Of a DNA stretch of 64,000 nucleotides, positions 1-48,397 are shown in pieces (position 1 is the stretch's first letter; each line of letters begins with the position of its first letter). Both the position numbers and the translations under genes were made by a program. The stretch is from Akkermansia muciniphila (GTDB lineage: Bacteria > Verrucomicrobiota > Kiritimatiellia > RFP12 > JAAYNR01): assembly GCA_945870025.1 (NCBI GenBank), contig CAMBQN010000004.1, positions 65,017-129,016 of the forward strand, read 5' to 3'. Below the pieces are notes generated by a model. It had not been told where the DNA came from. It saw only the letters and a program-made list of their open reading frames with translations, and ran no database searches.

Positions 1-2718
1 AAAAAACTGGTCAAGCTTGGCCGACGGCGCCACGGCTTTCTTCACCAACTCCTCGGACTTGAGCAGCCCCAGGTGGCAGCAGACCTGCCGAAGGCGCAGC
101 AGCATCGCCAGAATTTCCATGCGGCAGCGACCGAATCCCTTCTCGCGCACCAGGTCGCCAATCTTTCGCCGTGATTCCTGCAGCAGCGTGTTGTAGACCT
201 GCTGTTGGTCGGGAGTCAGGATGCAGTACGACACCTTCTCGATTTTAGCGGGGAGGTCCTTGGCGACGTCCTTCTTGAGGCGTCTGAGCAGGAAGGGGTG
301 AAGCTTGCGGCGGAGTTTGAGCTGCGCCTGCGCGCCCGATTCCCCGCCCACGCCGATCGGCCCTTCGTAATGCGCGTGAAACGTGTCGTATTCGCCGAGA
401 TAGCCGGGCATCAAGAAGTCCATGATCGACCACAGGTCGGCGACCGAGTTTTCGACGGGCGTTCCGGTGAGCACCAGCCGGGACGCCGCGCGGATCTGCT
501 TGGCGGCGACGGCGTTCTGCGTGGAGCGGTTCTTGATGTGCTGGGCCTCGTCGAGAATGGCGACCGAAAAGGTGTGGCTTGCGTAGCAGGCTTCGAGATC
601 GCGGCGCAGCAGCGCGTAGGAGGTGATCACCACGTCGTGTTGGGGGATCTGTTCAAACAGCGTGTGGCGAGAGGACCCATTGAGCACGAGGCGCCGCAGC
701 TTCGGGACGAAGCGCTCGGCTTCGCGGTTCCAGTTCTCAACCAGACTCGTCGGACAGACGATCAGGGCGGGCTTGCCTCGGACATCGGTCGAGACGCGTT
801 CCAGACTGAGCCAGACCAGCGTCTGAAGGGTCTTGCCGAGGCCCATCTCATCGGCAAGCAGCCCACTGAACCCCGACGCTTCGAGGAAACGAAGCCAGTA
901 CACGCCCTGCTTCTGGTAATCGCGCAGGGTTTGTTCGAGCCTATCGTCGCCCAGCGGGACGGGCGTGAGCTTCAGGTCGCGGTTTTGCTGCCGCGCAGAG
1001 GCGCGCCAATCGGGCGGCTCTTCGACGTCAATTCCGTCGATAGCCGCCAGCGAGGACTGGACGAATGGCGCGTAGACCGTGGGGAGGCGGAAAGTTCCGG
1101 GGCGCCCGCCGTCACGCGCCCGGCAGTCGCTGAAGACATCGCGCATCGACTCGACGGCCGAACGGTCGATGAGGATAGCCTGGCCATCGCGCTCGATGAA
1201 CGACTCCCGGCGGTTCAGAGCGCGCTGGATGTCGGCGGGCGTCAGCGCCGGACCTCCGGCGCATTCGAAATCCAGACCCACCTCAAACCAGTTCGTTCCG
1301 GAAGACGTTCCGACCCGGACCACCGGCGTGACCACCGGCATCGCCTCATAAAAGTCCGCCACGCGGCCTTCGGTCGTGACCTTCCACCCCATCCGACGCA
1401 GTGCGGGGAGGTCGCTGCCGAGAAAGTTGAGCACGGCACGCGTGCCGATGATCGGCTCAAAGCCGTCGCCCTGCTCTCCCGAAAAACCCAGGGTGTTGAG
1501 GTGGTGAAGCGCCCGCAGTTCCAATTCCGGGTTGCGTCCCCAATACTGGAGCAGGTCATCGGGATCGGGAATGGTGAAGGCCCCCGCCGTGTCGGGCCCG
1601 GCTACGGCAAACGAGGTCTGTCCATAGGTGGCCCTCAGATCAACCGCGATCGAGGCGGGGCTGCCCCGCACCACCAGGTGAAAGACCGGTTGGGCACAGG
1701 AGATGGTGAAGAGATCGGAGTCGATCTCGCAAACCACGGGGATGTCCTGCTGCAACCGGGGTAGCTCGTTCTGCATAAAACGCAGAACGTCGGCACGGGG
1801 AATGGCCACCGGATCCGCGCTCCAATAGAGCGCGTGGTAGGGGAGGGGAAGTGTTTTTTTCAGTGGCCAGAGGGCGTCGTTGACCAGCGCCCAGCTTTTT
1901 TTGTTGCAGGCCAGATAGGTCGGAAAAGTCGTCGGGTTGGCGCCTGGGATGGCCGTTTCAGGAAAGATCAACAGCTCGCCGGTCTCGCGGTCGAGGTCGA
2001 CGCGCAGGGAGAAGTCGAGCGGCGTGTCGCGGACGTTGACATCGGTGTTGTCGGTGACCGGCAGCGCGCGGCGGCGCGAGAGTTCGAGGATGTTGAAGAA
2101 ATCAGACGTGTTGACCGTGACTCGGGCGGGCGGAGTGCCTTCGCAGATATCCTCCAGCACCGAAAGCAGGGTGTCATCGGCGTGTGAGAGGGCGTAACCG
2201 GCGGGGTCGGTGAGCGCGGCGGAGGGAAGGAGTTGGGCGCCGATCTGAAAGACGCAGCCGAGCTCGACCGCATCGCGCGCTACGGCGTCGGTCCAGTCCT
2301 TGGGAAGAAACACCAACAGCGTCGCGGGGGTGCCGCGGGGGTTGCGGCGGATCGGCGTGGCGGCAGCGCGGGCGGCCGTGGCGCGGGCGTGGCGCTGTTC
2401 CTCCTGATATTTTTGTTCGCGAAGCGGGTCCGTACTCCGCTGCATCACTAGAATCGCCATGGCCACGACATGCGAGCAGATCAGATTCTGTTCCCGGTTG
2501 ATGTAACAGGGGCAGTGGCTCTCGACCGTTCCGTTTTCATTGATTTTAAGTTTGGAGACGAGATTGGCGCCGCTGCTGCGGGCGACAACCCCCTCCAGCC
2601 ACGGACCGTTTACGTCCGCGCGCAGGACGCCGCCGCGTTTGACGAGCGCTTCCGCCTCGCGATAAACAGCGCCGCCGCCCCAGTTAAGAATTTGATTCTG
2701 GCTCAGCTTGATCGGCAT
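1..2718 (-). CDS. SNF2-family helicase with N-terminal SWIM zinc finger (C-terminus runs off the window)
   Basis: Absent from the ORF track because there is no stop inside the window. My reverse-strand translation from ATG (2718-2716) stays open for 906 codons to position 1. It begins MPIKLSQNQILNWGG and has a SWIM-like CPCYINREQNLICSHVVAM. SNF2 motifs follow: LLADEMGLGKT, ILDEAQHIKN, LTGTPVENS. Confidence 0.85.
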   Translation of the reverse strand, partial: MPIKLSQNQILNWGGGAVYREAEALVKRGGVLRADVNGPWLEGVVARSSGANLVSKLKINENGTVESHCPCYINREQNLICSHVVAMAILVMQRSTDPLREQKYQEEQRHARATAARAAATPIRRNPRGTPATLLVFLPKDWTDAVARDAVELGCVFQIGAQLLPSAALTDPAGYALSHADDTLLSVLEDICEGTPPARVTVNTSDFFNILELSRRRALPVTDNTDVNVRDTPLDFSLRVDLDRETGELLIFPETAIPGANPTTFPTYLACNKKSWALVNDALWPLKKTLPLPYHALYWSADPVAIPRADVLRFMQNELPRLQQDIPVVCEIDSDLFTISCAQPVFHLVVRGSPASIAVDLRATYGQTSFAVAGPDTAGAFTIPDPDDLLQYWGRNPELELRALHHLNTLGFSGEQGDGFEPIIGTRAVLNFLGSDLPALRRMGWKVTTEGRVADFYEAMPVVTPVVRVGTSSGTNWFEVGLDFECAGGPALTPADIQRALNRRESFIERDGQAILIDRSAVESMRDVFSDCRARDGGRPGTFRLPTVYAPFVQSSLAAIDGIDVEEPPDWRASARQQNRDLKLTPVPLGDDRLEQTLRDYQKQGVYWLRFLEASGFSGLLADEMGLGKTLQTLVWLSLERVSTDVRGKPALIVCPTSLVENWNREAERFVPKLRRLVLNGSSRHTLFEQIPQHDVVITSYALLRRDLEACYASHTFSVAILDEAQHIKNRSTQNAVAAKQIRAASRLVLTGTPVENSVADLWSIMDFLMPGYLGEYDTFHAHYEGPIGVGGESGAQAQLKLRRKLHPFLLRRLKKDVAKDLPAKIEKVSYCILTPDQQQVYNTLLQESRRKIGDLVREKGFGRCRMEILAMLLRLRQVCCHLGLLKSEELVKKAVAPSAKLDQFF

Positions 2719-3013
2719 GGGTAAGCCGTTAGTGGTCGGTCAGGTTGTCAAACACTCCCTTGCACAGCATGCAACGGCCGGAATACGACGGTTTCTCAGC
2801 GATCATGTCAATACCTCCAGTTCAATTTCGCGTGGTTCAAACATTCGATAAAGGACAGGTCCCTTTTCAAGCAGACCGCGGTACTTTATCACAAATCCTT
2901 TGGTTTTGGGTATCCCATTACACGTCTTGTCTTTGCGTTGTGTGATTTTTTTGGTATCTTTCTCTTTTTCATGAGCAGGTCGCCAGACCTGCCAGGCTAT
3001 TGAGGACAGGACT

Positions 3014-6000
3014 ATGCAGATACTTAAAGCGATTTTTGGGACCAAGAATCAGCGCGACGTGAAGCGGATGCGTCCGATGGTGGCTCGGATCAATGCGTGG
3101 GAACAGCAATATCAGGCGCTCTCGGATGTCGACCTGCGCGCCAAGACGGTGGAATTTCGGGAGCGGGTGAGGCTAGGCGAGACGCTCGACAGTCTCCTGT
3201 TCGAGGCCTTTGCTGTGGTGAAAAACGCCTGTCGCCGGTTGTGCGGCTCGCGTCGGATGGTGTGTGGCCACGAATTGCCGTGGGAAATGGTGCCGTTCGA
3301 CGTGCAGCTCATGGGCGGCATTGTGCTGCACGAGGGGAAGATTGCCGAAATGCAGACCGGCGAAGGCAAGACGCTGGTGGCGACCCTGCCGCTCTATCTC
3401 AACGCCCTCTCCGGCAAGAACGTGCATCTGGTGACGGTCAACGACTACCTCGCCCTGCGCGACTCGCAGTGGATGGGGGCCGTGCTGGAATTTCTCGGCC
3501 TGACGGTCGGATGTATCCAGAATGACATGTCGCCGACGCAGCGGCGGCAGCAGTACGCCTGCGATGTGACCTACGGCACCAACAGCGAATTTGGCTTTGA
3601 CTACTTGCGCGACAACGGCATGGCCATGGATCCGTCGCAGGTGGTGCAGAACGGCCATACGTTCGCCATCATCGACGAGGTGGACAGTATTCTGATTGAC
3701 GAAGCCCGGACGCCGCTGATCATTTCCGGCGTTGCCCAGCAGGCAGCCGCACACCAGTATGCCGAACTCAAGCCGCTGGTTGAGCGACTCTTCAAGCGGC
3801 AGCAGGAGCTGTGCAACCGTCTGATCGGCGAGGCCAAGCAGGCGCTGGATGCCAAGGATCAGGAAACGGCGATGTGGCGGCTCTTCCAGGTCTACCACGG
3901 CACGCCCAAGCACAAGCAGTTTCTCCACCTGCTGGAAGAGACGGCCGTGCGGAAGCTGCACGAGCAGGTGGAGAGCATGATGCTCACGGAGATGCGCAAG
4001 GAGCAGGCCCGCGATCTTCGGGAGGAGATGTTTTTCACGATCGACGAACGGACCCGCGAGGTCTCGCTGACCGACAAGGGGTGCGAGGCGATGAATCCGG
4101 ACGATCCGTCGATGTACCTGATGCCCGACCTGATCACCACGATGTCGGCGATCGAGGGCGACACGTCGATCAGCCCCGCCGAGCGGACCCTGCGCACGCA
4201 GACGGCGCGGTCCGATTTCATGGAGCGCAGTGAACGGGTCCGCAACGTCGACCAGCTTCTCCGCGCCTACAGCATCTACGAACGCGACGTGGACTACGTG
4301 GTTCAGGACAACCGGGTTCTGATCGTGGACGAGTTCACCGGCCGCATCCTGCCGGGCCGCCGCTGGAGCGACGGCCTCCACCAGGCGGTGGAGGCGAAAG
4401 AGGGCGTGCAGATCGAGCGCGAGACGCAAACCCTGGCGACCATCACGATTCAGAACTACTTCCGCCTCTACAAGAAGTTGGCGGGTATGACCGGCACCGC
4501 CGAAACGGAGGCGGGCGAGTTCTCGGATATATACAAGCTGGACGTCTCGGTGATTCCCACCAACCGTCCGATCCGCCGCGTCGACCAGAACGATCTGATC
4601 TTCAAGACCCAGCGCGAGAAGTTTAAGGCGGTCATTGAAGAGGTGTCCGAACGCCATCGCAACGGCCAGCCGGTGCTGCTCGGCACGGTGACGGTCGACA
4701 CGTCGGAGGTCATCAGCCGCATGTTGCGCATGGCCCACATCCCGCACAATGTGCTGAATGCGAAGAACCATGCGCGCGAGGCCGAGATCGTCGCGCTGGC
4801 GGGCCAGCCGGGAACCGTGACCATCGCCACGAACATGGCCGGCCGCGGCACCGACATCAAGCTCGGCCCCGGCGTGGTGTGGGCGCCCGAGTCGGTGGTC
4901 AAGTCGCAGCTCACGCTCGAAGAGAAACCGGCGGGCGAGGCTCGGACGCTGCGGGATCTGCTCAACGAGCGCCCCTGCGGACTCCACGTGATCGGCTCCG
5001 AGCGCCATGAATCGCGCCGCATCGACCGTCAGCTCCGCGGCCGGTGCGCCCGGCAGGGCGACCCCGGCTCGTCCCGGTTTTATATTTCGCTCGAAGACCA
5101 GCTCATGCGGTTGTTCGGCTCCGACCGCATTTCGGGGATCATGACCCGCCTCGGCATGCAGGAAGGCGAGGCACTCGAACACCGCTGGTTGAACCGCTCG
5201 GTCGAGACAGCGCAACGCCGCGTGGAGCAGCAGAACTTCTCCATCCGCAAACGGACGCTCGAATACGACGATGTGATGAACAAGCAGCGTTCGGTCATCT
5301 ACGAGCTGCGGGGTGAGGTGCTCTGCTCGGATTCGCCGCACGAAAAGATTCTGGACATCTTCAACGACTTGATCCTTTCCCAGTGCGAAGGCTTCCTCGA
5401 ATCGCGGAAGGTCAGTGAGTGCCGACCCGCTGAACTGGCCGAGGCGTTGATGACGGCGTTTCCGATCGCCGTGACCGCCGATGAGCTGGGGGCGTTTGCG
5501 GGCAAGCCGGAGGATGCCGCCCAACAAATATATTCGCGCGTGGCCGAGGCTTACGAGGTGAAGTGCGCGATGGAGCCGCCGGCATCGCTGGCGTTTCTGG
5601 AACGTCAGGTGGTGCTGAGCTGCATTGACCAGCAATGGCAGGAATATCTGCGGGCCATGGACGAACTGCGCCACGGGGTGAGCCTGCGCGCCTATGGCCA
5701 GCGCGATCCGCTGGTGGAGTACAAGCGCGAGGCGTTCAAGATGTTTGAAGAGCTGGTCGAGCACATCAAAACCGATGTCGCGCATACGGTCTTCCGCGCC
5801 ACGGCGTCGATTGACAATTTCGACCGTCTGATGCATGGCGGCGGCGTCCGTCGGCAGCAGACCATCCACCAGTCGGTCTCGCTTCTGGGGGCTGCCAACG
5901 CGGAGGACATCACCCCGTTTGACGACAACGCGCAGTCGTCAATGGCGGTTCCGGCCGGGGCGGCGGCCAATTTTGATGCGGCGCTCGATGCCATGGGCAA

Positions 6001-14321: not shown

Positions 14322-14348
14322 GGGGCACCTCTGAAAGATAAAGAAGTG

Positions 14349-14385
14349 GCGCTTGCAAAACCCATTTCGCCGGTTCTGCAAGCGC
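14349..14385. repeat. Solo family-A hairpin GCGCTTGCAAAACC-N9-GGTTCTGCAAGCGC
   Basis: 14-nt arms with one A/C (G:U on the other strand) mismatch. Located between the ferredoxin stop and the folD start. Confidence 0.8.
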
Positions 14386-14428
14386 ACGATTCAGATGCAG
14401 ACCGGCCGCAGCCGGCGGTACAGACGCC

Positions 14429-14602: not shown

Positions 14603-14739
14603 GATGTGTTTCCTTATGTTTGTCCCGAGCCGCCGATCCGGTCCCGCGGACAAACACGGGACACCCTGTGACGTGGGAAAGGCGAATATGATACCCGATT
14701 GGACCGCTTCGGGCAAGCAGAGGATTTTTAACAGCAGAG

Positions 14740-14902
14740 GCGCTTGCAAAACCTCCTTCGTCGGTTCTGCAAGCGCAGTATTCAGAAGTCAGTATTCAGA
14801 ATCAGAACCCTTTCTTGAGCAGGGTCTTATCCACATTCTGGTTCCTGACTTCTGTATTCTGACTTCTCTCTTGCAAACACCCCGGAGGGGTTTTGCAAGA
14901 GC
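14740..14902. mobile_element. Family-A composite palindromic (MITE-like) element, 163 bp, flanked by the 8-bp direct repeat CAGCAGAG
   Basis: The left end is a hairpin GCGCTTGCAAAACC-N9-GGTTCTGCAAGCGC (14740-14776). The interior is an imperfect inverted repeat built of ..TTCAG.. heptads (AGTATTCAGAAGTCAGTATTCAGAATCAGAACC ... GGTTCCTGACTTCTGTATTCTGACTTCT). The right end is a hairpin TCTTGCAAACACCCC-GGA-GGGGTTTTGCAAGAGC. The direct repeats are at 14732-14739 and 14905-14912. Confidence 0.75.
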
Positions 14903-21919: not shown

Positions 21920-23356
21920 ATGAATAGTCGCATGGAAAAGGCGGGCGCGGATGTGCCTGAACAGGTGGCTGCTGCGCTCAACGCGGGCAGTCTGCTGGAG
22001 GGCGTGTGTCGGCTCGGCGTGGCGGTTTCGGGTGGCGCCGACTCCGTGGCGATGCTGCATCTGCTGACTCCGGTGTGCCGTCGGCAACGCATCACCCTGG
22101 TGGCTCTGCATCTGAATCACGGGTTGCGCGGTGTGGCGTCGGATGGTGACGCGGCTTTTGTGCGGACGTTATGCGCCCGGCTGGGCATCGTCAGTGTGGT
22201 CGGTCGTGTGCGCGGGCTGGATGGCAAACGCCCAAAGCGGCGCGGGGCGTGTCAGTCGCTGGAAATGGCGGCACGCGCGGCGCGGCAGGCGTTCTTCCGG
22301 CGGGTGGCCCAAAGGCATCGGCTCGATGCGGTAGCCGTCGCGCATCACCGCGACGACGTGGCCGAGACGGTGTTGCTGCGGCTGATGCGGGGCGCCGGGG
22401 CGGCTGGTTTGTCAGGGATGCGGCCGAGAGCGATGGTGGACGGACTGCTGGTGATCCGTCCGCTACTGGGCATCGCCCGCGAGGCTTTGCGCGCGTGGAT
22501 GAGGCTTCATAACGAGGTCTGGCGCGACGATGCGAGCAACACCGATATCTCCATTCCTCGCAATCGCGTGCGGACGTCTGTGTTGCCTTTTCTGGAAGAG
22601 ACGTTTGGATCCGGGGTCGTCGGCGGACTGGCCCAATCGGCGGATCTGCTGCGCGAAGACGATGCGGCGCTGGATGCGCTGGCGGCCGATGCCCAGACGG
22701 CAACGTGCGCCGGGACGGGATTGATCGCCGACCGGCTGATGCCACTGCCGGCGGCGCTGCGGCGTCGGGTGGTGTACCGGTGGATGCTGGATCGCGGCGG
22801 GGCGGCGGCGGCCACATTCGAGACGGTTCGCCGGGTGCTGGAGAAGCTCGCGGAGGGAAGTCGCCGTTGGCGGCTCGCGGCTGGCGGAGGCATTCGAATC
22901 GGCTACCGGGAGGGTGTGCTATCAACCGATACCGGCGGGCCGGTAAAGGTTAAGCTGAACACGCGTTTTCTCCGGAGGAACGGCACGGTCATGGTGGGTG
23001 ATCTGCGTGTGACGGTTCGGCCGGCGGTTCGGATTGTGCGGGAAGGCGGGCCTGTGGGGCGCATGCCCGCGCAGTGTACGATCAGCGCCGAAGCGGTTCG
23101 AGGCAAGCGGCTGGCGGTGCGCTGCCGCAGACCGGGCGACCGGATCGCGCCGCTTGGAATGTCCGGCAGTCGCAAGGTTCAGGACGTGCTGGCCGACGCA
23201 AAAATCCCTGTCGAACGGCGCGACAGGGTGCCGCTGCTCGTCTGCGGGAACGAGGTGGTCTGGATACCGGGCTACCGCGTCGCCACGCGATTCGCCGTAC
23301 CCAGCCCCACCGCTCCCGCACTGCTGATCAGGGTTGCTAAGACTAGAGGCGCTTGA
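21920..23356 (+). CDS. tilS: tRNA(Ile)-lysidine synthetase
   Basis: PP-loop VAVSGGADSVAMLHLL, then HLNHGLRG and AHHRDD. The start is uncertain (GTG 21875, ATG 21920 or ATG 21932). The last three codons and the TGA stop lie inside a repeat element (see findings). Confidence 0.85.
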   Translation: MNSRMEKAGADVPEQVAAALNAGSLLEGVCRLGVAVSGGADSVAMLHLLTPVCRRQRITLVALHLNHGLRGVASDGDAAFVRTLCARLGIVSVVGRVRGLDGKRPKRRGACQSLEMAARAARQAFFRRVAQRHRLDAVAVAHHRDDVAETVLLRLMRGAGAAGLSGMRPRAMVDGLLVIRPLLGIAREALRAWMRLHNEVWRDDASNTDISIPRNRVRTSVLPFLEETFGSGVVGGLAQSADLLREDDAALDALAADAQTATCAGTGLIADRLMPLPAALRRRVVYRWMLDRGGAAAATFETVRRVLEKLAEGSRRWRLAAGGGIRIGYREGVLSTDTGGPVKVKLNTRFLRRNGTVMVGDLRVTVRPAVRIVREGGPVGRMPAQCTISAEAVRGKRLAVRCRRPGDRIAPLGMSGSRKVQDVLADAKIPVERRDRVPLLVCGNEVVWIPGYRVATRFAVPSPTAPALLIRVAKTRGA

Positions 23357-23474
23357 AAAACCCCTGCAAGCGCCGGTTTCAGGTTTCAGTGTTCAGGTTT
23401 CAGGAAGACGCAACATCGTGTGGTTCTTCCTGACACCTGAACTCTCCGCTTGCAAAACAGGGTTTTGCAAGCGG
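23348..23474. repeat. Family-A composite element filling the whole tilS / 599-aa-gene convergent spacer
   Basis: GGCGCTTGAAAAACCCCTGCAAGCGCC, then (GTTTCAG)x4 ... GGTTCTTCCTGACACCTGAAC, then a perfect 13-bp hairpin CCGCTTGCAAAAC-AGG-GTTTTGCAAGCGG (23446-23474). Confidence 0.8.
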
Positions 23475-23478
23475 CTCA

Positions 23479-25362: not shown

Positions 25363-25439
25363 TGGTGGGCGGTGAGGGACTCGAACCCCCGACAGCCTGG
25401 GTGTAAACCAGGTACTCTAACCAACTGAGCTAACCGCCC
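25363..25439 (-). tRNA. tRNA-Val (anticodon UAC), CCA encoded
   Basis: Reverse complement reads GGGCGGTTAGCTCAGTTGGTTAGAGTACCTGGTTTACACCCAGGCTGTCGGGGGTTCGAGTCCCTCACCGCCCACCA. It has a 7-bp acceptor stem, D-loop AGCTCAGTTGGTTAGAG, anticodon stem CCTGG/CCAGG with loop TTTACAC, and T-arm GGTTCGAGTCC. Confidence 0.9.
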
Positions 25440-25505
25440 CAGTCGTCTGTGGTCGTAAAAAGTACCATACTCGACAGGGGTCTGCAAGCCAATCCCCCGA
25501 CAGCC

Positions 25506-25647
25506 CAGCAATTCTAATTATGACAGCCGCTATCGGGATCCAAATCGTGATCGGGACCGAAATCGACGAGAAAGCAAGGAATTCGACCCCGATAGCGATA
25601 GCGATTTCGATTTCGACTGTACGGATGTGCCATAATTAGAATTGCTG
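25506..25647. mobile_element. Family-B MITE-like element, copy B1 (142 bp), with 17-bp TIRs and a 9-bp flanking direct repeat
   Basis: TIRs are CAGCAATTCTAATTATG (25506-25522) and CATAATTAGAATTGCTG (25631-25647), a perfect inverted repeat. CCGACAGCC occurs immediately outside both ends (25497-25505 and 25648-25656). The interior holds CGAT-based hexamer arrays around a GGAATTC core. Confidence 0.85.
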
Positions 25648-25658
25648 CCGACAGCCAA

Positions 25659-27431
25659 TCACTTGCCCGCCATGCGAAAGTTGCCGAATCGCAGCTCGCC
25701 GCCAGCGGGCGCGTAGATCAACACGTTGAGCTTGCCAACCTCGGCGGGCAGGGGGAGTGTGTCGCGGTATTCCCAGGCGGTCAATGCGCTCTTGAAAGTC
25801 TTGTCGGCGCAGACGAAAAACGCGGTGTTTCGGCCGGGTTTGATGTAGAATGGCACCGTTTCAAAATAGCGCCCGCCCGCGTCGAGTCCGAGCGCCACTC
25901 GCGTGCCGCACGTGAGTCGGCTTTCCACGTCAACCAGCAGCGTGTCGCCCACGCGCAGCGTCAGCGCAGGCTCGCACAGCCGGCTAAACACCGTCTTTTC
26001 CTTGCTCCCAACCTGGAACCGCACCACAAGCCGCCCGTCGGCCTCAACGCCTTCCGCCGCATCGCCCCATTCCTCGCGAACCCATGTTGCCGTTTGACCG
26101 GCCCCACGGATAGGACGAGTCGGGCCCTCGGGCGGTCGCGCGTCGGACGGGTCGGACGCGCGGCGCATCCCGCCCGAGGCCTTGTCCACAAACGTCAAAT
26201 CAATCCCGCCGTGCTGACTGAGGAAGTACAAGATGAGGTTGACCCCCATCCGCGTCGCCCCTTCCTGCATCTCCGCCGGACTGAGGCTGGTAAGCGAGTC
26301 TTTCAGCGGCTGCGTGTGGGGATCGATGTTGAGGCCGTCACCATAATCGTTACGCGTGTAGATCACCGCGACACGTCCGTTGATCCGTATTCCCTCGATG
26401 TAGTCCTCACGGTATTTGTCGCCCGGCGGAATGGCATAGCCCTTGTAGCCGCGGGTCAGATCATAACCGGTGCGCCAGCCCTCAAAATCAGCGCCCAGCC
26501 GCTCGATGACCGCGTCCGGCAGAACCCGAGCGATTTCACGCCGGAAGGCCCGATCAAAGGTTTCATCGCGGTAGTGCGTCGAGTCATCGGCCCACAGGTG
26601 TCCGTTTTTCTGCAAATACTCGCGCAGGTTGCGCACTTCTGCGTCGGTGAAACGAAAATCATTATGACCGGTCAGATACACAAACGGAAGCCGTTTTAGT
26701 TCGGGTTGATCGAGCCGCACGACGGTGTCACCGGCCATCAGCGACATGCCGGTGCGCTCACGAAGTTGATGACTTAGAAACATCATCGCGGTCCGCGCGC
26801 AATCCCAGTCGCCGCCGTATTGCGCCAGGGCCAGCGTCGCCGAGACCGTGCCCGGACCGCTGCTGCCGCCCTTCAAGGCCAGATCGCCAGCCGTGCCGCT
26901 CTGTCGCCGCTGCGGCTGGCCGGTTCCCTTGGGCAGGGCGATACCGACGTTTCGCGCCGCATCCGGACGGTGTGCGTCGCCCACGGCCGCCACGCTTACC
27001 GCCGCCGCTGTCTTTCGCTGCGTCGCGCCACCCCCCGCATCCGACGCGCGGGCGACCGTTGCGGCTGTCGCTCCGCTCCCGGTCGACGTCGCGGCCGGTG
27101 CGGCACGGCGCTGCGCCCCGGCGGCCAGCGTGACCGTCTCCGCAACCACCGCAGCCGTTCCGGCTACCTGCCGCTCCGGCCCGAGGCTCTCCGGATGCGC
27201 CGCGTCGGGCGCCGCCCCACGTGCCGCGCCGCCCGACGCGACACGCGCCAGACCAACCGTCGCCGCCTCCGGCTGACGCGCATCGGCCCCGGCCGCCACA
27301 CCGCTCGCCGCCGACGTGCGATGCGCCGCGCCACCAGCCGCTTCCGACGCACGGGCGACCGTTGCGGCTGTCGCTCCGCTCCCGGTCGACGTCGCGGCCG
27401 GTGCGGTACGGCGCCGCGGCAGGTGCGGCAC
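25659..27431 (-). CDS. C-terminal portion of the split giant protein: Ala-rich ~100-aa repeats, DUF4159-like domain and a C-terminal beta domain
   Basis: DUF4159-like block LPFVYLTGHNDFRFTDAEVRNLREYLQKNGHLWADDS...VIYTRNDYGDG. The N-terminal 160 aa are the same repeat peptide encoded, in another frame, by the upstream ORF. The GTG start at 27431 is probably artefactual. Confidence 0.7.
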   Translation of the reverse strand: MPHLPRRRTAPAATSTGSGATAATVARASEAAGGAAHRTSAASGVAAGADARQPEAATVGLARVASGGAARGAAPDAAHPESLGPERQVAGTAAVVAETVTLAAGAQRRAAPAATSTGSGATAATVARASDAGGGATQRKTAAAVSVAAVGDAHRPDAARNVGIALPKGTGQPQRRQSGTAGDLALKGGSSGPGTVSATLALAQYGGDWDCARTAMMFLSHQLRERTGMSLMAGDTVVRLDQPELKRLPFVYLTGHNDFRFTDAEVRNLREYLQKNGHLWADDSTHYRDETFDRAFRREIARVLPDAVIERLGADFEGWRTGYDLTRGYKGYAIPPGDKYREDYIEGIRINGRVAVIYTRNDYGDGLNIDPHTQPLKDSLTSLSPAEMQEGATRMGVNLILYFLSQHGGIDLTFVDKASGGMRRASDPSDARPPEGPTRPIRGAGQTATWVREEWGDAAEGVEADGRLVVRFQVGSKEKTVFSRLCEPALTLRVGDTLLVDVESRLTCGTRVALGLDAGGRYFETVPFYIKPGRNTAFFVCADKTFKSALTAWEYRDTLPLPAEVGKLNVLIYAPAGGELRFGNFRMAGK

Positions 27432-30400
27432 GGCGCTGCGCCCCGGCCGCTAGCGTGACCGTCTCCGCAGCTACCGCAGTCGTACCGGCTACCTGTCGCT
27501 CCGGTCCGAGGCTTTCCGGTTGCGCCGCTTCGGGCGCCGCCCCACGTGTCGCACCGCCCGACGCGACACGCGCCAGCCCGACCGTCGCCGCCTCCGGCTG
27601 ACGCGCATCGGCCCCGGCCGCCACACCGCTCGCCGCCGACTTTCGCTGCGCCGCGCCACCCACCGCATCCGACGCGCGGGCGACCGTTGCGGCTGCCGCT
27701 CCGCTCCCGGTCGACGTCGCGGCCGGTGCGGCACGGCGCTGCGCCCCGGCGGCCAGCGTGACCGTCTCCGCAGCCACCGCAGCCGTTTCGGACGCCTGCC
27801 GCTCGGGTCCGAGGCTTTCCGGGTGCGCCGCTTCGGGCGCCGCGCCGCTCGGCGCGACACGGGCCAGCCCGACCGTCGCCGCCTCCGGCTGACGCGCATC
27901 GGCCCCGGCCGCTACATCGCTCGTCACCGACTTTCGTTGAGCCGCTTCGTCCTTTGCCATGGCCCGTTGCAGATCAACTGCACGTGCAGCATCCGCCCGC
28001 GCCACGCGTTCTGCATGTTTGGCCGACGCCTGCCGAAGTTCTTCCGGACTCGCCGCTGCGGTCGGTACCGGTTCACGTTCCGCTTCATCGGCCTTCCGTT
28101 CAATCGCATCGGGCATGCGCTCTCGCATCTTCGCCTCCATTGCCGCTACGGCGCTGGCGCTGAGGTCAGGTTGTGCGAGATCGGCTGCAGCGCGTGCCTC
28201 GGCCGCAGAAAGCGACTGCTCCGCCTTGGCCTGCTTGTCCAGTTCGGACGGCGTGTCCTTCACGGCAACAGCGCCAGCGGCTGGCGCCAGGGAGAAGCCC
28301 AGCTTCTCCTCGAGCGATCCGATCGTCACCGCCAAGGAGGGCGAGATTTGCTCCAAGGTCACCACCCGCGTCTGTAACAGCAGGTCGAGTGACAGCAGAA
28401 AGACGAGAACGTGCATGACCAGGCTTGCTGCAAAATATTTTGCGAGTCGGTTTTCTTCGCCTTGCGTCATCCGCCACAGCAGATAGAGGAGAATCAAAAG
28501 CAGGAGCAGAACCCCCGCAATCCGCCACGCATTATAGCTTCCGGCCGCGGCGGGGGTAACGGACGTCGGTTCGTCAACGGCGGCGGAGGGCACAACCTCC
28601 GAATTCGAAGCCGCCTCCGGTTCGGGTGGCGGCGTTTCGATTATCGGTTCGGGTTCAGGTTCAGGTTCAGGTTCCGGTGCGGTGACTACCGCCTGCTCCG
28701 GCTCGGGTGCGCGTTCAGGCTCTACAAGGACTTCGGCTTTGGGTTCCGGAACAACGACCCCTACAGTCCATGGAATCTCGACGGTGTTCCATCCCCAACT
28801 GATCGCCACCCGGCCGGTGAGTTGGGTGGTGGATCCGATTCCGGCGGTTCCTACCACGATCTGCCAGCGTGTGGTCTCGACCCCCAACGTCACGTCGCGA
28901 ACACCGTCGAAGCGGCCGTCAAACCCCAGTATCACCGCTTGCACGCGGCAGGCGCGGTCGGCAGCCTGCACGACGCCCCACACCGTTCCGGTCACCACCT
29001 GCCCCGGCGCGACAGGAGTCCACGACAGCTCCCTGGGTCCGATGACAATGGGCGGCGCACGGATGCGCACACAGACACTCACCTCGGCTCGTGGAAGCGT
29101 GCCGACGGTCACCACCACTCGTCCGGTGGACACGCTTGGGCGCGCGTCACGACCCGCTGTCACTGCCAGCCCCAGCTCGAGCTGCCGTCCTTCGGGGATG
29201 TTTTCGCCACTCGGCAACAGGGACACAAGCCCTGCGCTGAACCCTTGCACATCGGCGGTAAAGTGTCCGCGCCCCGCGATCACCACTCGTCCCGTCACCG
29301 TGCAACCGGGGTCAAGTTCCAAAACCAGCGGCTTAGGCTGCACCCAGAGCGCGTCCCGCCGCATCGGCGTCACGTGTTGATGCTGGACGGCGATGCGTTG
29401 AAAGGGAAGGCCGGCTTCGGTGACGCCCCGTGCCGTTGCCTGCCAGACCGACGGGCCTGGGCCAGCCGGAACGGCAAAACCCTCGAAATAACCGCGATCG
29501 GTTACGTCGAGTTTCTGTTGGGCGCCGCCCGTGCCGGTCGTCAGCGACACATCGCAGCCGCGTGTCATGGCCTCGCCGTCGCGCACGACCAGTGCCGCTA
29601 CCGCCTGAGGCACGGCATCGGTCACAACGCCTGTGGGCGGGAACAGCACGAGTTCCAGATCACTTTCGGCGGTCGCGGCCAGTGCGCCGAGGCCCGTGGC
29701 CCGCCACAGACCCCTTGCGGGCGCATACCGCTCGGCCATGGAATCGCTCGCGCGGGCCGTCCGCAACGCCACCGCCGCCCCGCCGTCCGGGAGTGTGATC
29801 ACGGCCTGGACATCCTCGTCAGCGGCCAGCGTCAGCGTCAGCAGGCGCACGCTGTCGTCCACCGGAACATCGGCATCGTCCGTCGTGAGATCCCAGGTGC
29901 CGATCGACACCGAGGGGTGGATGGCCAAAACGATTTCCTGAAAAATAGTCTCCAGACGGGTCATGTCGGGCGCAAATGAAAAAGTTCCGCCGGTATTCTG
30001 GGCAATGCGATCCAGGGTATTGCTGTCGGCCAACGTGGAGAGCCCGACGGTATAGACCGGGATACGCGAGGCCGTGAATCGGCGATGGGAATCTTCATAG
30101 CGACCCGGTTCGTCCCTGCCGTCCGACAGCACCACGACGATCTTGCGGGAGTCGGGGAGGGTGGCGAGGGTCTGGTCGGCCAAAATCAGCGCGGCGTCGA
30201 GATCGGTCGAGCCGCGCGCGACCAGACCTGCCATGGCCTGTTCGAACGTCCCCGTGTCAGCCGGCGGGGTAGGGGACAGGAGCAGGCGCGGCCGCCGTTC
30301 AAACGCGACCACTGAGAGGGTGCGCACGACGCCGCGGCTGGCGGCGATGCGCGCAAAGAGGGTCAGCGCGCTGACGCGCAGACGCGCGGGATCGGTCTTG

Positions 30401-30813
30401 CGCATGCTGAACGAGTCGTCAATGACCAGCGCCACGTCTATCCGGCTGGCGGCAGATTGCACGGCTTTTGTGAGGCGCAGTTCGCGCGTGCCGTTGGTTC
30501 CCTGGGCACACAGCACGAGATCCGACAGTCCCTGTGCGGCTGCGGGCCATCCGCCCACGTATATCTGCCAGCCACCGCCGATGGGCCGGGCCAGTACGCG
30601 GCGCACGTCACCCGATCCGGAAGGTCCTTCCACGCGCGCCGAAAACGCAGTGGATCCGGGCGCCTCGTCGGCACCGAGGGACACAAAACCGTAATGGCCG
30701 TGGGACTCGAACGTCGCGGCGCGGACGGCGGCGGCAGACCACAGACAGGCACACAGCAACGCACGACCGGTGAGCCGTGCCAACCGCCCCGTTGTCCGCT
30801 GTTCCGTCGCCAC
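26758..30813 (-). CDS. N-terminal portion of the split giant protein: signal peptide, vWA (MIDAS), beta-rich region, (EP)n linker, 2 TM helices, TolA-like helical region, Ala-rich repeats. The last ~225 codons are out of frame
   Basis: vWA motifs VALVIDDSFSM, GSTDLDAAL, VVVLSDGRD. Linker PEPEPEPEPEPIIETPPPEPE. TM helices AWRIAGVLLLLLILLYLLW and YFAASLVMHVLVFLLSLDLLL. After ~aa 1124 (nt ~27443) the translation becomes Arg/Gly-rich junk (APYRTGRDVDRERSDS...) while the repeat peptide continues in the frame of ORF 25659..27431. Confidence 0.75.
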   Translation of the reverse strand: MATEQRTTGRLARLTGRALLCACLWSAAAVRAATFESHGHYGFVSLGADEAPGSTAFSARVEGPSGSGDVRRVLARPIGGGWQIYVGGWPAAAQGLSDLVLCAQGTNGTRELRLTKAVQSAASRIDVALVIDDSFSMRKTDPARLRVSALTLFARIAASRGVVRTLSVVAFERRPRLLLSPTPPADTGTFEQAMAGLVARGSTDLDAALILADQTLATLPDSRKIVVVLSDGRDEPGRYEDSHRRFTASRIPVYTVGLSTLADSNTLDRIAQNTGGTFSFAPDMTRLETIFQEIVLAIHPSVSIGTWDLTTDDADVPVDDSVRLLTLTLAADEDVQAVITLPDGGAAVALRTARASDSMAERYAPARGLWRATGLGALAATAESDLELVLFPPTGVVTDAVPQAVAALVVRDGEAMTRGCDVSLTTGTGGAQQKLDVTDRGYFEGFAVPAGPGPSVWQATARGVTEAGLPFQRIAVQHQHVTPMRRDALWVQPKPLVLELDPGCTVTGRVVIAGRGHFTADVQGFSAGLVSLLPSGENIPEGRQLELGLAVTAGRDARPSVSTGRVVVTVGTLPRAEVSVCVRIRAPPIVIGPRELSWTPVAPGQVVTGTVWGVVQAADRACRVQAVILGFDGRFDGVRDVTLGVETTRWQIVVGTAGIGSTTQLTGRVAISWGWNTVEIPWTVGVVVPEPKAEVLVEPERAPEPEQAVVTAPEPEPEPEPEPIIETPPPEPEAASNSEVVPSAAVDEPTSVTPAAAGSYNAWRIAGVLLLLLILLYLLWRMTQGEENRLAKYFAASLVMHVLVFLLSLDLLLQTRVVTLEQISPSLAVTIGSLEEKLGFSLAPAAGAVAVKDTPSELDKQAKAEQSLSAAEARAAADLAQPDLSASAVAAMEAKMRERMPDAIERKADEAEREPVPTAAASPEELRQASAKHAERVARADAARAVDLQRAMAKDEAAQRKSVTSDVAAGADARQPEAATVGLARVAPSGAAPEAAHPESLGPERQASETAAVAAETVTLAAGAQRRAAPAATSTGSGAAAATVARASDAVGGAAQRKSAASGVAAGADARQPEAATVGLARVASGGATRGAAPEAAQPESLGPERQVAGTTAVAAETVTLAAGAQRRAAPAAAPYRTGRDVDRERSDSRNGRPCVGSGWWRGASHVGGERCGGRGRCASAGGGDGWSGACRVGRRGTWGGARRGASGEPRAGAAGSRNGCGGCGDGHAGRRGAAPCRTGRDVDRERSDSRNGRPRVGCGGWRDAAKDSGGGKRGGRGRRTPSGCGAKRRYRPAQGNRPAAAATERHGWRSGLEGRQQRSGHGLGDAGPGAIRRRLGLRADRDDVSKSSTS
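26936..27936 (-). repeat. Coding tandem repeat, ~303-bp unit, ~3.2 copies, nearly identical at the DNA level
   Basis: The string GCGACCGTTGCGGCTG(T/C)CGCTCCGCTCCCGGTCGACGTCGCGGCCGGTGCGG recurs near 27051, 27353 and 27680. The encoded peptide is ...AAPAATSTGSGA(T/A)AATVARAS...GADARQPEAATVGLARVA...ESLGPERQ...AETVTLAAGAQRR. Confidence 0.9.
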
Positions 30814-32024: not shown

Positions 32025-32162
32025 CACCGCATTGTTGGCGGTCATGTTTTTCTTTCGGGGTCGGGGTCGGTATCGGTATCGGGGTCGAATTTCCGTTGTT
32101 TTTATCCGAAACCGATCCCGCCCCCGACGCCGATGGTCCTATCTCCAAAATGAGAATTTCTG
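32025..32162. repeat. Family-B element, diverged copy B2, opposite orientation
   Basis: ...CGGTATCGGTATCGGGGTCGAATTTCCGTTGTTTTTATCCGAAACCGATCCCG... aligns with the reverse complement of B1. The right TIR CAAAATGAGAATTTCTG (32146-32162) matches 15/17 to B3's. The left TIR is degenerate. It lies between the TPM gene and exbB. Confidence 0.6.
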
Positions 32163-44206: not shown

Positions 44207-44217
44207 TAGAACCCGGC

Positions 44218-44293
44218 GGACGACTACGGCGACGACTACGGATAACGAGGGGAATTCCGAATTCGTCCACCGTCGTCGTCGCCGTAGTCGTCC
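44218..44293. repeat. Family-C palindromic element: 19-bp perfect stem (GGACGACTACGGCGACGAC / GTCGTCGCCGTAGTCGTCC) around a GGAATTCCGAATTC core
   Basis: Arms at 44218-44236 and 44275-44293. The loop is TACGGATAACGAGGGGAATTCCGAATTCGTCCACCGTC. The right half is related to 48062-48104. Confidence 0.8.
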
Positions 44294-45186
44294 ACCGACC
44301 CGTGTCCGGCGGGACTGGAACAGGAAAACCACGCCAGGCCCTGCTTGCGGTAGGCGCGGGGGCCGATGCCGATCTCGCGCTTGAAAAGCCGGCTGAAATG
44401 GAACGCGTCCGGGTAGCCGCAGGCCTCGCCCACCTCGGCCACCGTGTGATCCGTCGTAACCAGCATCTGCTGGGCCCGGCGCAGGCGGATCCGCGCCACG
44501 TATTGCAGCGGCGGCACTCCCAACACCCGACGGAAGGCCACGTGGAACCGGGAGGGCGACATGTGCGCCCGCTCCGCCAGGTCGTCCCGCGTCAGGGGCT
44601 CCTGCACGTGCTGCTGGATGAAGGCCAGCACCGGCGCGAGCCGCGCGGCGCCTTCCTCAAAGGCTTGGTAGGACGGTCGCAGGGTCGCCTGGCTCAGCAC
44701 CAGCCTCAGGAGTCGCAGTCCGATCTCCTGGATCTCGATCCGAACCGCCAGTGCGCCGTCGTCTCCCTTGGCCAGCAACTGGCTCAGCCGCGCGCTGCCG
44801 TCCCCGAGTTCCGGCGAGGTCGCCCGCGACGCGAGGTCAGGGACGTCGTAGAAATCGAACAGGCTCACCGACCCCAGCACGCGGAAGTTCAGGTGGCTCC
44901 ACCAACTGGCACCTTCCCGGCTCTCGAATACTTCGACCCGGTGCCTCACGCCGGGAGCGATGAGAACTGCGCCGCCCGGCCGCGTCTCGACGGTCTGCAC
45001 ACGCGCCGCGCGCTCGACATCGACCCGGAGCCGGCAGCTCCGTCCCTGCGTCACGAGCAAGGCCGGAAGAATCCGCCAGCCCGTGCTGTGGCCGTTGGGG
45101 ACCGGGGTCACGCCCGCAGTCTCCACCTCCACCGTCAGCGACTCGACCAGCCGCGCCTCGAACCTCGCGGTCTCCGGAACTCCCAT
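44236..45186 (-). CDS. AraC-family transcriptional regulator
   Basis: C-terminal double HTH LTRDDLAERAHMSPSRFHVAFRRVLGVPPLQYVARIRLRRAQQML...ACGYPDAFHFSRLFKREIGIGPRAYR. The N-terminal half is cupin-like. The last ~19 codons (VDDYGDDDGGRIRNSPRYP) are encoded by the family-C repeat. Confidence 0.85.
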   Translation of the reverse strand: MGVPETARFEARLVESLTVEVETAGVTPVPNGHSTGWRILPALLVTQGRSCRLRVDVERAARVQTVETRPGGAVLIAPGVRHRVEVFESREGASWWSHLNFRVLGSVSLFDFYDVPDLASRATSPELGDGSARLSQLLAKGDDGALAVRIEIQEIGLRLLRLVLSQATLRPSYQAFEEGAARLAPVLAFIQQHVQEPLTRDDLAERAHMSPSRFHVAFRRVLGVPPLQYVARIRLRRAQQMLVTTDHTVAEVGEACGYPDAFHFSRLFKREIGIGPRAYRKQGLAWFSCSSPAGHGSVDDYGDDDGGRIRNSPRYP

Positions 45187-47660: not shown

Positions 47661-47880
47661 CAAGGAATCAGGGAATGCGCGAAGCGGGTAGGGCAGCGGC
47701 GTCCCCGCTGAAGAGAAAAGCTGAAAGCTGAAAGGCGCTTCGTGCAAGGGATCAGGAAAAGCGCGAAGCGAGGTAGGGCGACGGCGTCCCCGCTGAAGAG
47801 AAAAGCTGAAAACTGAAAAGCTGAAAACGGAAAGGCGCTGCGCGCAAGGGATCAGGGTCAGCGAGAAGCGATGTAGACGC
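47661..47880. repeat. Tandem family-A-like units (84 bp, 100 bp and a partial unit) containing (GCTGAAA)n heptad arrays
   Basis: Unit 1 is 47661-47744 and unit 2 is 47745-47844. Both read CAAGGRATCAGG..GCGCGAAGCG.GGTAGGGC..CGGCGTCCCCGCTGAAGAGAAAAGCTGAAA...GGCGCT.CG.G, with 2 versus 4 heptads. A 17-bp inverted partner of AGGGCGACGGCGTCCCC (47775-47791) lies at 47923-47939. Confidence 0.8.
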
Positions 47881-48061
47881 TTGCTGCAGACCGGCAGGCA
47901 TTTCCATTATCAGCGGCGCGGCGGGGACGCCGTCGCCCTCGTGCGCTGCGCGGACACCGATTGCTTTTGATCATGGACCTGCGGTCAGAGAGAAGGAACG
48001 CGTAAGGAGTGTGTGTGGGTATGTGAGTGTGTGGGTGAAGGCGCGAAGCGGGTCTGTGTGT

Positions 48062-48190
48062 GAAATCGTCATCCGTAGTCGTCGCCGTCGTCGTCCACCG
48101 ACCGATGCGACGGCCGCAGGAGGATGTAGCAGGGATCGACCGGAGGGAATCGTCATCCGCTCTCGTCGCCCGCTCTCGTCCACCGGACGG
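48062..48190. repeat. Two direct family-C half-copies (48062-48104 and 48146-48190)
   Basis: The two copies are GAAATCGTCATCCGTAGTCGTCGCCGTCGTCGTCCACCGACCG and GGAATCGTCATCCGCTCTCGTCGCCCGCTCTCGTCCACCGGACGG. Compare 44259-44302, GAATTCGTCCACCGTCGTCGTCGCCGTAGTCGTCCACCGACCCG. Confidence 0.75.
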
Positions 48191-48242: not shown

Positions 48243-48397
48243 CAGCAATTCTCATTATGGTCGTCGATTTCGGTATCCAAATCGAAATCGGGATCGGGAT
48301 CGACGAGAAAGATGGGAATTCAACCCCGACCCCGATAGCGATAGCGATTTCGATTTCGATTTCGACTGGCCGGATGCGATCAAAATTAGAATTGCTG
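48243..48397. mobile_element. Family-B MITE-like element, copy B3 (155 bp)
   Basis: TIRs are CAGCAATTCTCATTATG (48243-48259) and CAAAATTAGAATTGCTG (48381-48397). The interior is collinear with copy B1 (…CGACGAGAAAG..GGGAATTCAACCCC(GACCCC)GATAGCGATAGCGATTTCGATTTCGATTTCGAC…) with one extra hexamer in two of the arrays. No flanking direct repeat. Confidence 0.8.

Follow-up and report, generated by a model that had tools for sequence, protein, structure and literature searches.

What is the short, repeat-bounded sequence that separates a tRNA-Val gene from its upstream neighbour in contig CAMBQN010000004.1, and how did it get there? The sequence, here called B1, comprises 142 bp (25506-25647; all coordinates are positions within the analysed 64-kb stretch of this contig, referred to as the window). 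It is very probably a non-autonomous DNA transposon, i.e. a MITE (miniature inverted-repeat transposable element). B1 has paired terminal inverted repeats (TIRs) and a target-site duplication (TSD) of fixed length but varying sequence, is small, lacks a transposase and belongs to a dispersed multi-copy family. In addition, an insertion sequence (IS) that shares these TIRs and this TSD length exists in other lineages, and a relative carries the empty site. A preliminary description of the window had correctly classified B1 as a MITE but missed that its flanking 9-mer recurs in the tRNA and that the element lies at a fixed distance from a promoter. As a MITE, B1 is ordinary biology: This reading accounts for three repeats in the window and adds a documented family and a likely helper IS for the little-studied Kiritimatiellia-type bacteria. 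More interesting than B1 as such is the group defined by its TIRs, which spreads across phyla with interchangeable hairpin cargos and shows a one-sided phase to -35 hexamers.

The two TIRs of B1, CAGCAATTCTAATTATG (25506-25522, plus strand) and CATAATTAGAATTGCTG (25631-25647, minus strand), were located by direct reading and by a 17-mer search. They are complementary at 17 of 17 positions and enclose an interior of 108 bp. The 9-mer CCGACAGCC flanks the element as an unstranded direct repeat on the left (25497-25505) and on the right (25648-25656). The bases outside the 9-mer differ (ccc and cag around the left copy, ctg and aat around the right one), so the duplication comprises exactly 9 bp and is not part of a longer duplicated flank. 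Direct reading thus confirmed the proposed layout. When up to three mismatches are allowed, the TIR 17-mer has five matches in the window compared to 0.03 expected, and all five are ends of B1 and of the related copies B3 and B2. The 9-mer occurs five times (1.09 expected), once inside tRNA-Val (25389-25397). B1 is placed between this tRNA-Val(tac) gene (25363-25439; ARAGORN, Rfam and 9-mer search), which lies downstream of the targeted promoter, and an upstream open reading frame (ORF, 25659-27431), both on the minus strand. As described previously, the stop codon of the upstream ORF (25659-25661) is located 2 nt from the right TSD copy.

B1 is not alone. B3 (48243-48397, plus strand), already listed in the preliminary description, is a full-length copy of 155 bp with one mismatch per TIR, extra hexamer units and no TSD; it differs from the consensus of its subfamily at 39 positions. 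B2 (minus strand) also proved to be real, but is shorter than the proposed 32025-32162: nhmmer found homology only for 32054-32162. Its other end is truncated, and the single remaining TIR, CAGAAATTCTCATTTTG, has three mismatches. Two interior subfamilies can be distinguished, sub1 with B1 and, as a diverged branch, B3, and its sister sub2 with B2. Since the orthologous site in the Kiritimatiellia metagenome-assembled genome (MAG) L011 holds the same truncated copy, B2 is an old insertion. B1 differs from the 142-nt sub1 consensus at two positions, has a perfect TSD and is absent from a relative, all of which mark it as a young insertion. To the left of B3, the window is repeat-dense: Two direct repeats of ~85-100 nt (GGTAGGGC..GCGTCCCCGCTGAAGAGAAAAGCTGAAA..) and an inverted partner lie at 47687-47952, and a TCGTCATCCGTAGTCGTCGCCGTCGTCGTCCACCG-type repeat is common to 44214-44300 and 48062-48170. 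This repeat density may explain why B3 has no TSD.

A scan of 185,579 species-representative genomes with a pattern composed of one TIR and the conserved core, which left the second TIR and the flanking repeats free, yielded 34 further loci in a handful of MAGs. These are mostly labelled Kiritimatiellia or Kiritimatiellae, some "uncultured Akkermansia" or Terrimicrobiaceae. Two of them contain at least 14 pattern-matching copies each, and extra copies were found with nhmmer. The copies occur in unrelated contexts and in both orientations. A second TIR is present in 28 of the 37 pattern copies (three from the window, 34 from the genomes). Perfect 9/9 flanking repeats were found at 15 of these 28, and every 9-mer is different (e.g. 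tttagtcct, tgtcaggag, cttgtcagc, ggcggtcgg, taatttcat, ggccagggc and cccgcacac); three more copies match at 7-8 of 9 positions and three are shifted by one base, while the chance level is ~2 of 9 bases. Different perfect 9-bp repeats at each site are what transposition into target DNA cut with a 9-bp stagger leaves behind. Both multi-copy dispersal and transposition, proposed for B1 in the preliminary description, are therefore borne out by the family.

One locus combines two family members. In L018 (4235-5011), a full sub1 copy precedes a gene pair resembling DUF4160/DUF2442, as read from the ORFs, behind which a sub2 right end (..CCCCGATGACCCAATCGCCTCATAATGAGAATTGCTG) is located. This is a possible MITE-bounded cargo unit; a TSD around the entire unit was not found.

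The vicinity of a tRNA gene raises the question of whether B1 might instead be the remnant of a site-specific integration, with repeats that are att duplications made by a tyrosine integrase. A 12-mer, cccccgacagcc (GGCTGTCGGGGG on the minus strand), is indeed present both in the T-arm of the tRNA (25386-25397) and, ~100 nt upstream, at the target site (25494-25505), and a phage-integrase gene is located near the orthologous gene in another MAG (L083). However, the duplication comprises exactly 9 bp as at the other copies, whose 9-mers resemble no tRNA. It lies upstream of the tRNA and not at its 3' end, and what it encloses is a 142-bp element with transposon TIRs. Furthermore, the single-copy site of the relative L081 (see below) reads AGGGGTCGGGGG and matches the tRNA only partially in the empty state. 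Because 9-bp TSDs occur at unrelated sites, an att origin is effectively refuted and must be considered highly improbable. The 12-mer shared by tRNA-Val and the target site may be due to chance or local gene conversion.

Which enzyme could have moved B1? The route to a candidate was a scan of viral contigs with a single TIR. Nearly all of the 27 matches were chance matches in AT-rich phage contigs without a second TIR or an nhmmer match. In one of them, L056, the TIR adjoins the end of an ORF, and this led to the IS. A second viral scan aimed at extending L056 returned the same truncated locus again. Homologs of the ORF tail are ORFs of 55-67 aa, and their contigs show elements with these TIRs at both sides. 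A search with a 376-aa ORF yielded more than 3400 homologs with a typical length of 445 aa, most of them on contigs of ~1.4-2 kb, as expected of a repeated IS. On long contigs, the IS has a length of 1421-1425 bp with a single 445-aa ORF and the ends CAGCAATTCTCATTTTGGCG and CAGCAATTCTCATTATGGCC; it starts with CAGCAATTCTCATTTTG, and its other end reads ...CATTATG. The B1 TIR agrees with the IS ends at 15-16 of 17 bases, and the differences fall on the two variable positions of the family pattern CAGCAATTCT[A/C]ATT[A/T]TG. TSDs of the IS are perfect (9/9) in L075 (ATACAGAGA), L076 (GCATGGGGG) and L068/L069 (CCACTCGCA). L064 represents a 1015-bp derivative of the IS with an internal deletion and a TSD matching at 8 of 9 positions. 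For copies on metagenome contigs of ~1.5 kb, TSDs are mostly unusable, as left and right flanks do not match, probably due to the collapse of repeats in the assembly. An autonomous partner with the same TIRs, for which the preliminary description had recommended a search, was thus found in the form of an IS of ~1425 bp with a 9-bp TSD.

The 445-aa protein is barely recognised by curated domain models: It matches Pfam DDE_Tnp_1 (PF01609) below the gathering threshold (E 7e-4 to 0.08) and the NCBIfam IS4 model (NF033591) with E 3e-4 and 20 bits compared to a cut-off of 152 bits. With the 38-aa tail and a frameshifted 376-aa ORF, Pfam and NCBIfam gave nothing significant. The protein contains the motif RWKIENE, which is typical of the DDE 'E' region in IS4-like enzymes. 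Homologs with 41-54% identity on RefSeq plasmids of Nostoc, Acaryochloris and Gloeothece are named "ISNCY family transposase", and so is one metagenome homolog in the NCBI annotation. The homologous IS of Nostoc punctiforme, whose transposase is 54% identical and encoded on plasmid pNPUN02, begins with CAGCAATTCTCATCATG. Taken together, the transposase appears to be a divergent IS4-like DDE enzyme. The helper IS possibly belongs to the ISMae2 group of the ISfinder tables (~1.4-2.4 kb, 9-bp direct repeats). A tblastn search with the 445-aa transposase found no homolog in the window or in the 34 genome loci L001-L034. Therefore, B1 is non-autonomous, as had been assumed.

L062 was considered as a helper and rejected: It is a copy of the IS into which an unrelated IS1182-like element (DUF772, DDE_Tnp_1 and DDE_Tnp_1_6) is nested, and the transposase gene of this IS copy (1894-4191) lacks its 5' part. 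In many IS copies, the last ~55-65 codons form a separate ORF (L062 3708-4168, L063 1-283, L065 2400-2694; proteins P0001-P0017). Frameshifts or an in-frame TGA (..LTHTVLE*MDDKY..) separate it from the rest, while intact copies read ..VLDWADGKF.... The split tail could reflect decay, assembly error or recoding.

From these data, a pathway for the insertion of B1 can be proposed. The only parts of B1 required for mobility would be the two 17-bp TIRs. The 445-aa transposase, supplied in trans, would bind both of them, cut or copy the element and join it to target DNA whose strands are cut 9 bp apart. The direct repeat CCGACAGCC would arise when this offset is repaired. In this manner, B1 would have landed 18 bp upstream of the -35 hexamer TTGCAG of tRNA-Val and 2 nt beyond the upstream gene's stop codon.

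Is there a site without the element? On the metagenome contig L081, the flanking protein of the window has a counterpart with 93% identity, and tRNA-Val is present with one mismatch. The window's minus strand shows ..GTGATT GGCTGTCGG, followed by the MITE, a second GGCTGTCGG and GGGATTGGCTTGCAG. At the corresponding place, L081 reads ..GGATTAGGGGTCGGGGGATTGGCTTGCAG.. with a single 9-mer, AGGGGTCGG (minus strand), and the element is absent. If the MITE and one TSD copy are removed from the window, both sequences form a gapless colinear alignment of 309 nt with 90% identity that runs across the junction and begins 4 nt left of the 9-mer. The empty site, whose existence in related strains had been suggested as a check, is therefore represented by L081 with a single, related 9-mer. 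Six further loci (L082-L087) with orthologs of the flanking 599-aa protein (65-85% identity) were uninformative in this respect, as tRNA-Val is not located upstream.

What does B1 carry between its ends? The left hexamer array (25532-25567, plus strand) comprises ATCGGG ATCCAA ATCGTG ATCGGG ACCGAA ATCGAC, or (ATCGNN)x6, and constitutes the 5' arm of a hairpin. The right array (25585-25617, plus strand; repeat pairs I11 and I18) comprises GACCCC GATAGC GATAGC GATTTC GATTTC GAC, or (GAYNNC)x5, and forms the 3' arm. The asymmetric central core GAGAAAGCAAGGAATTC (25568-25584, plus strand) makes up the loop; it is conserved among sub1 copies and sets the orientation of the element. Since the two arrays are mutually complementary, the whole element folds into one hairpin, with -58 and -70 kcal/mol on the two strands and z scores of -6 and -8. 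The number of hexamer units differs among copies in multiples of 6, presumably through replication slippage. The arms of sub1 and sub2 differ in sequence and have kept their complementarity.

Such a stable fold could also be expected of a conserved RNA or DNA hairpin that is not mobile but serves the host, be it as a terminator or insulator separating the upstream gene from the tRNA, by stabilising mRNA 3' ends or as a small RNA. The preserved pairing of diverged arms fits this explanation, as does the location of B1 on the transcribed strand, where it begins 2 nt past a stop codon. Furthermore, 24 of 28 copies fold better in one orientation, by 5 kcal/mol on average, as G-U pairing on one strand would give; this asymmetry is not independent evidence, because the copies are closely related. 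By contrast, a host-function hairpin does not account for copies in unrelated contexts and both orientations with site-specific 9-bp duplications, for ends that match an IS at almost all positions, or for the empty site in L081. A terminator is contradicted by the lack of a U-tract after the hairpin on either strand, and scanning gave only a 5-bp internal stem. With Rfam 15 at gathering thresholds, the tRNA was the sole match, and a permissive scan added a single noise match to a plant miRNA precursor (25 bits compared to a gathering score of 90). A secondary use of an inserted copy is conceivable but could not account for the origin of the element. Hence, we regard a non-mobile structured sequence as very unlikely.

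The palindromic, intergenic and multi-copy nature of B1 is also reminiscent of a REP/REPIN-type palindrome spread by a RAYT (Y1/HUH) transposase. REPINs, however, have neither a target duplication nor TIRs of the DDE-IS type, whereas the elements described here have TSDs of a fixed 9 bp and a DDE IS as partner. Alternatively, B1 might be a small protein-coding gene: Symmetric 39-aa ORFs extend on both strands from an ATG in one TIR to a stop codon in the other, and hexamer indels would preserve the frame. However, these ORFs are a trivial consequence of the palindromic TAATTATG ends (B1 contains only trivial ORFs of 39-42 aa), the start codon is lost in sub2 (ATTTTG), it is not preceded by a ribosome-binding site, and the same TIRs enclose interiors with no sequence relationship to one another. 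The probability that B1 is a REPIN or a small gene is therefore close to negligible.

How far do these TIRs reach beyond the B family? In metagenomes, a scan for two TIRs 95-125 nt apart yielded at least 120 loci. The loci listed contain 121 elements with dozens of unrelated interiors on host contigs ranging from 33% to 67% GC, and the CGAT-hexamer family accounts for four of them among the matches listed. When these matches and the genome copies are considered together, a perfect 9-bp TSD is present at 67 of 145 unique sites, and at least 8 of 9 positions agree at 81 of 145. The interiors share a length of ~130-155 bp, a range imposed by the search itself. Folded without TIRs, the 121 interiors listed have a median z score of -4.2, and 55% are below -4. 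The CGAT-hexamer interior thus appears to be one lineage of a large group defined by its TIRs. The preliminary description was right that hexamer arrays surround the core and that this is unusual; they are nevertheless not what defines the element, as the same TIRs carry unrelated interiors and BrickBuilt (see below) offers a precedent. The hexamer interior is a non-coding cargo, one among many, and the hairpin is the feature common to most interiors borne by these TIRs. It may aid synapsis of the ends, which are separated by only ~110 bp, or, alternatively, act on read-through RNA. In other words, dozens of unrelated hairpin cargos are carried by a single pair of 17-bp TIRs, which is tied to a transposase not recognised by curated domain models.

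Members of the group were also observed side by side. In L014 (46-336), a third interior type with its own TSD, gttttttgtg, is found 10 bp after a sub2 copy. In L074 (58-282), a TIR-bounded element of ~207 bp and the IS are exactly 9 bp apart (CTTGCAGTG). These two arrangements suggest that elements of this TIR group insert beside each other.

Why did B1 insert at this place? The putative tRNA-Val promoter, read from the sequence (25459-25487, minus strand), consists of a -35 hexamer TTGCAG (25487-25482), a 17-nt spacer and a -10 hexamer TACTTT (25464-25459). The left end of B1 is 18 nt away from the start of TTGCAG, and the tRNA begins 19 nt after TACTTT. L081 has kept both hexamers, while the spacer varies. 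The same arrangement recurs elsewhere when flanks are read outward from each element end. In the B family, TTGAC occurs outward in 13 of 52 flanks compared to one inward, with a background of ~5% per 60-mer, and for eight of these 13 the start lies at exactly offset 18, i.e. 9 nt past the TSD. In the metagenome set with its unrelated interiors, TTG is present at offset 17/18 in 50 of 158 flanks of TSD-confirmed elements, whereas ~3% would be expected (among matches listed). On the same basis, 45 of 81 TSD-confirmed elements (56%) have TTG at 17-18 on exactly one side and none on both; it can be either side, independent of the orientation of the element itself. Given TTG, the following bases favour A (57%) and then C (70%). 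T and A are enriched at positions 41-47, the expected place of a -10 box after a 17-nt spacer, and TANNNT at a spacer of 16-18 nt was found in 11 of 30 flanks with TTG compared to 21 of 201 controls. An ORF is located downstream of 24 of 27 TTGAC flanks and of 144 of 189 others; this test did not discriminate, because open frames abound in high-GC sequence.

If insertions simply survived where intergenic DNA tolerates them, a fixed phase of 17-18 bp would be difficult to account for. Target selection instead of random choice, inferred from the sequence positions, would be the simplest reading. We consider the chances about even that the transposase selects its targets by reading promoters, positioning the element so that a TTGAC-type -35 hexamer lies 17-18 bp downstream of one of its ends, and that the group represents widespread, cross-phylum hairpin MITEs of ~140 bp which remodel the regions just upstream of promoters. 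The enzyme might recognise the -35 hexamer itself or attach to RNA polymerase already bound at the promoter, via sigma region 4 or alpha-CTD. Promoter-tethered integration is known for yeast Ty1 and Ty3, and a promoter-reading transposase would be a bacterial counterpart. If the phase reflects target choice and not survival bias, the group would exemplify promoter-directed transposition, of which bacteria provide few cases, and the upstream regions of promoters, in this window that of tRNA-Val, would be predicted to be affected systematically. The promoter-proximal target preference is the sole surprising part of the finding.

Two sets of shared flanks were observed at independent insertions. 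The right flanks of L006, L025 and L031 have CAGGGCAAACGCATCT(A/T)ATTTTTT in common, and flanks of L002 and L018 share the promoter-like TTGACCGGGGAG(A/C)GGATACCTGCTT(T/A)AAT. They may be repeated targets or conserved promoters of RNA genes.

Several observations weigh against the picture drawn so far. A TSD is absent at B3, L013, L016, L018, L022, L027 and L031; these are the diverged copies, and the loss may reflect age or recombination between copies. The role of the 445-aa transposase in mobilising B1 is deduced from shared ends and a shared TSD length, and in the Kiritimatiellia sequence searched, which comprised MAG fragments only, the IS was not found, which leaves it a candidate helper for this lineage. 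The homology of L081 to the left of the insertion extends over only 13 nt (4 nt plus the 9-mer, which matches at 6 of 9 positions), because the upstream neighbour differs there. As to the promoters, TTGCAG of tRNA-Val matches the -35 consensus at three of six positions, and a strict consensus promoter scan did not call it. Finally, the IS itself shows the TTGAC preference less strongly at its ends (six of 46 flanks).

Two other kinds of repeats were encountered. In a second short repeat family, present in the window at 14345-14400, 14737-14810, 23345-23405 and 23440-23475, TTCAG-type microsatellite runs (e.g. agtattcagaagtcagtattcagaatcagaa) come after the hairpin GCGCTTGCAAAACC...GGTTCTGCAAGCGC; this family may correspond to the 'family A' of the preliminary description. 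A longer member with the ends GAGGCKCTTGCAAAACC is inserted within the TIR of a sub2 copy in L001 (1414-1588) and splits it. In addition, three tandem repeat copies of ~300-325 nt with 61-96% identity were found at 27003-28000, where a 1351-aa ORF (26758-30813) and the 590-aa ORF upstream of tRNA-Val (25659-27431) overlap in different frames on the minus strand. Both ORFs are probably parts of a single, very large gene with internal repeats, in which a frameshift or a misassembly of the repeats has disrupted the reading frame.

Which known systems resemble B1? On the side of the helper, the names of the RefSeq homologs, the IS length of 1425 bp, the single 445-aa ORF and the 9-bp TSD correspond to insertion sequences of the ISNCY ('not classified yet') group, while the curated DDE_Tnp_1 and IS4 models give sub-threshold matches only. 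On the side of the MITE, the closest named lead is Nezha from Anabaena variabilis and Nostoc sp. According to literature summaries of Zhou et al. 2008, Nezha has a length of ~130-170 bp (template copy 138 bp), shares its TIRs with its presumed helper ISNpu3 of Nostoc punctiforme, is flanked by 9-10-bp direct repeats (for example CATTATCTAC), forms a stable hairpin and is known from empty and filled sites in relatives (PMC3184786, PMC6042816). With its 142 bp, B1 belongs to the same size class and agrees in the IS-shared TIRs, the length of the direct repeats, the hairpin and the empty site, a likeness by description and not by TIR sequence. The lead towards Nezha and ISNpu3 comes from the 54% identical transposase homolog on pNPUN02 of N. 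punctiforme and from low-GC, cyanobacteria-like contigs that carry elements with B1-type TIRs. In contrast to Nezha, the host of B1 is of the Kiritimatiellia type with ~60% GC, and the interior consists of CGAT-hexamer arrays. Nezha reportedly prefers A+T-rich sites; the literature summaries on it do not report a fixed distance to -35 hexamers.

Classical bacterial MITEs such as Correia/NEMIS, Chunjie and BrickBuilt are likewise short, non-coding, TIR-bounded, hairpin-forming, intergenic and often promoter-adjacent, a comparison that is again based on description and not on sequence. Chunjie of Geobacter has a 21-bp TIR and 9-bp direct repeats (PMC3184786). BrickBuilt of Porphyromonas is a MITE with an internal tandem array or minisatellite (PMC4596501), and the Correia elements of Neisseria are mostly located just upstream of genes (PMC10969869). 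B1 differs from Correia/NEMIS by its 9-bp TSD and by 17-bp TIRs of a different sequence. Correia elements cause a TA duplication, have 26-bp TIRs and an IHF site and influence expression via promoters they carry. In the group described here, by contrast, the striking feature is the position at which the element inserts relative to the -35 hexamer of the host.

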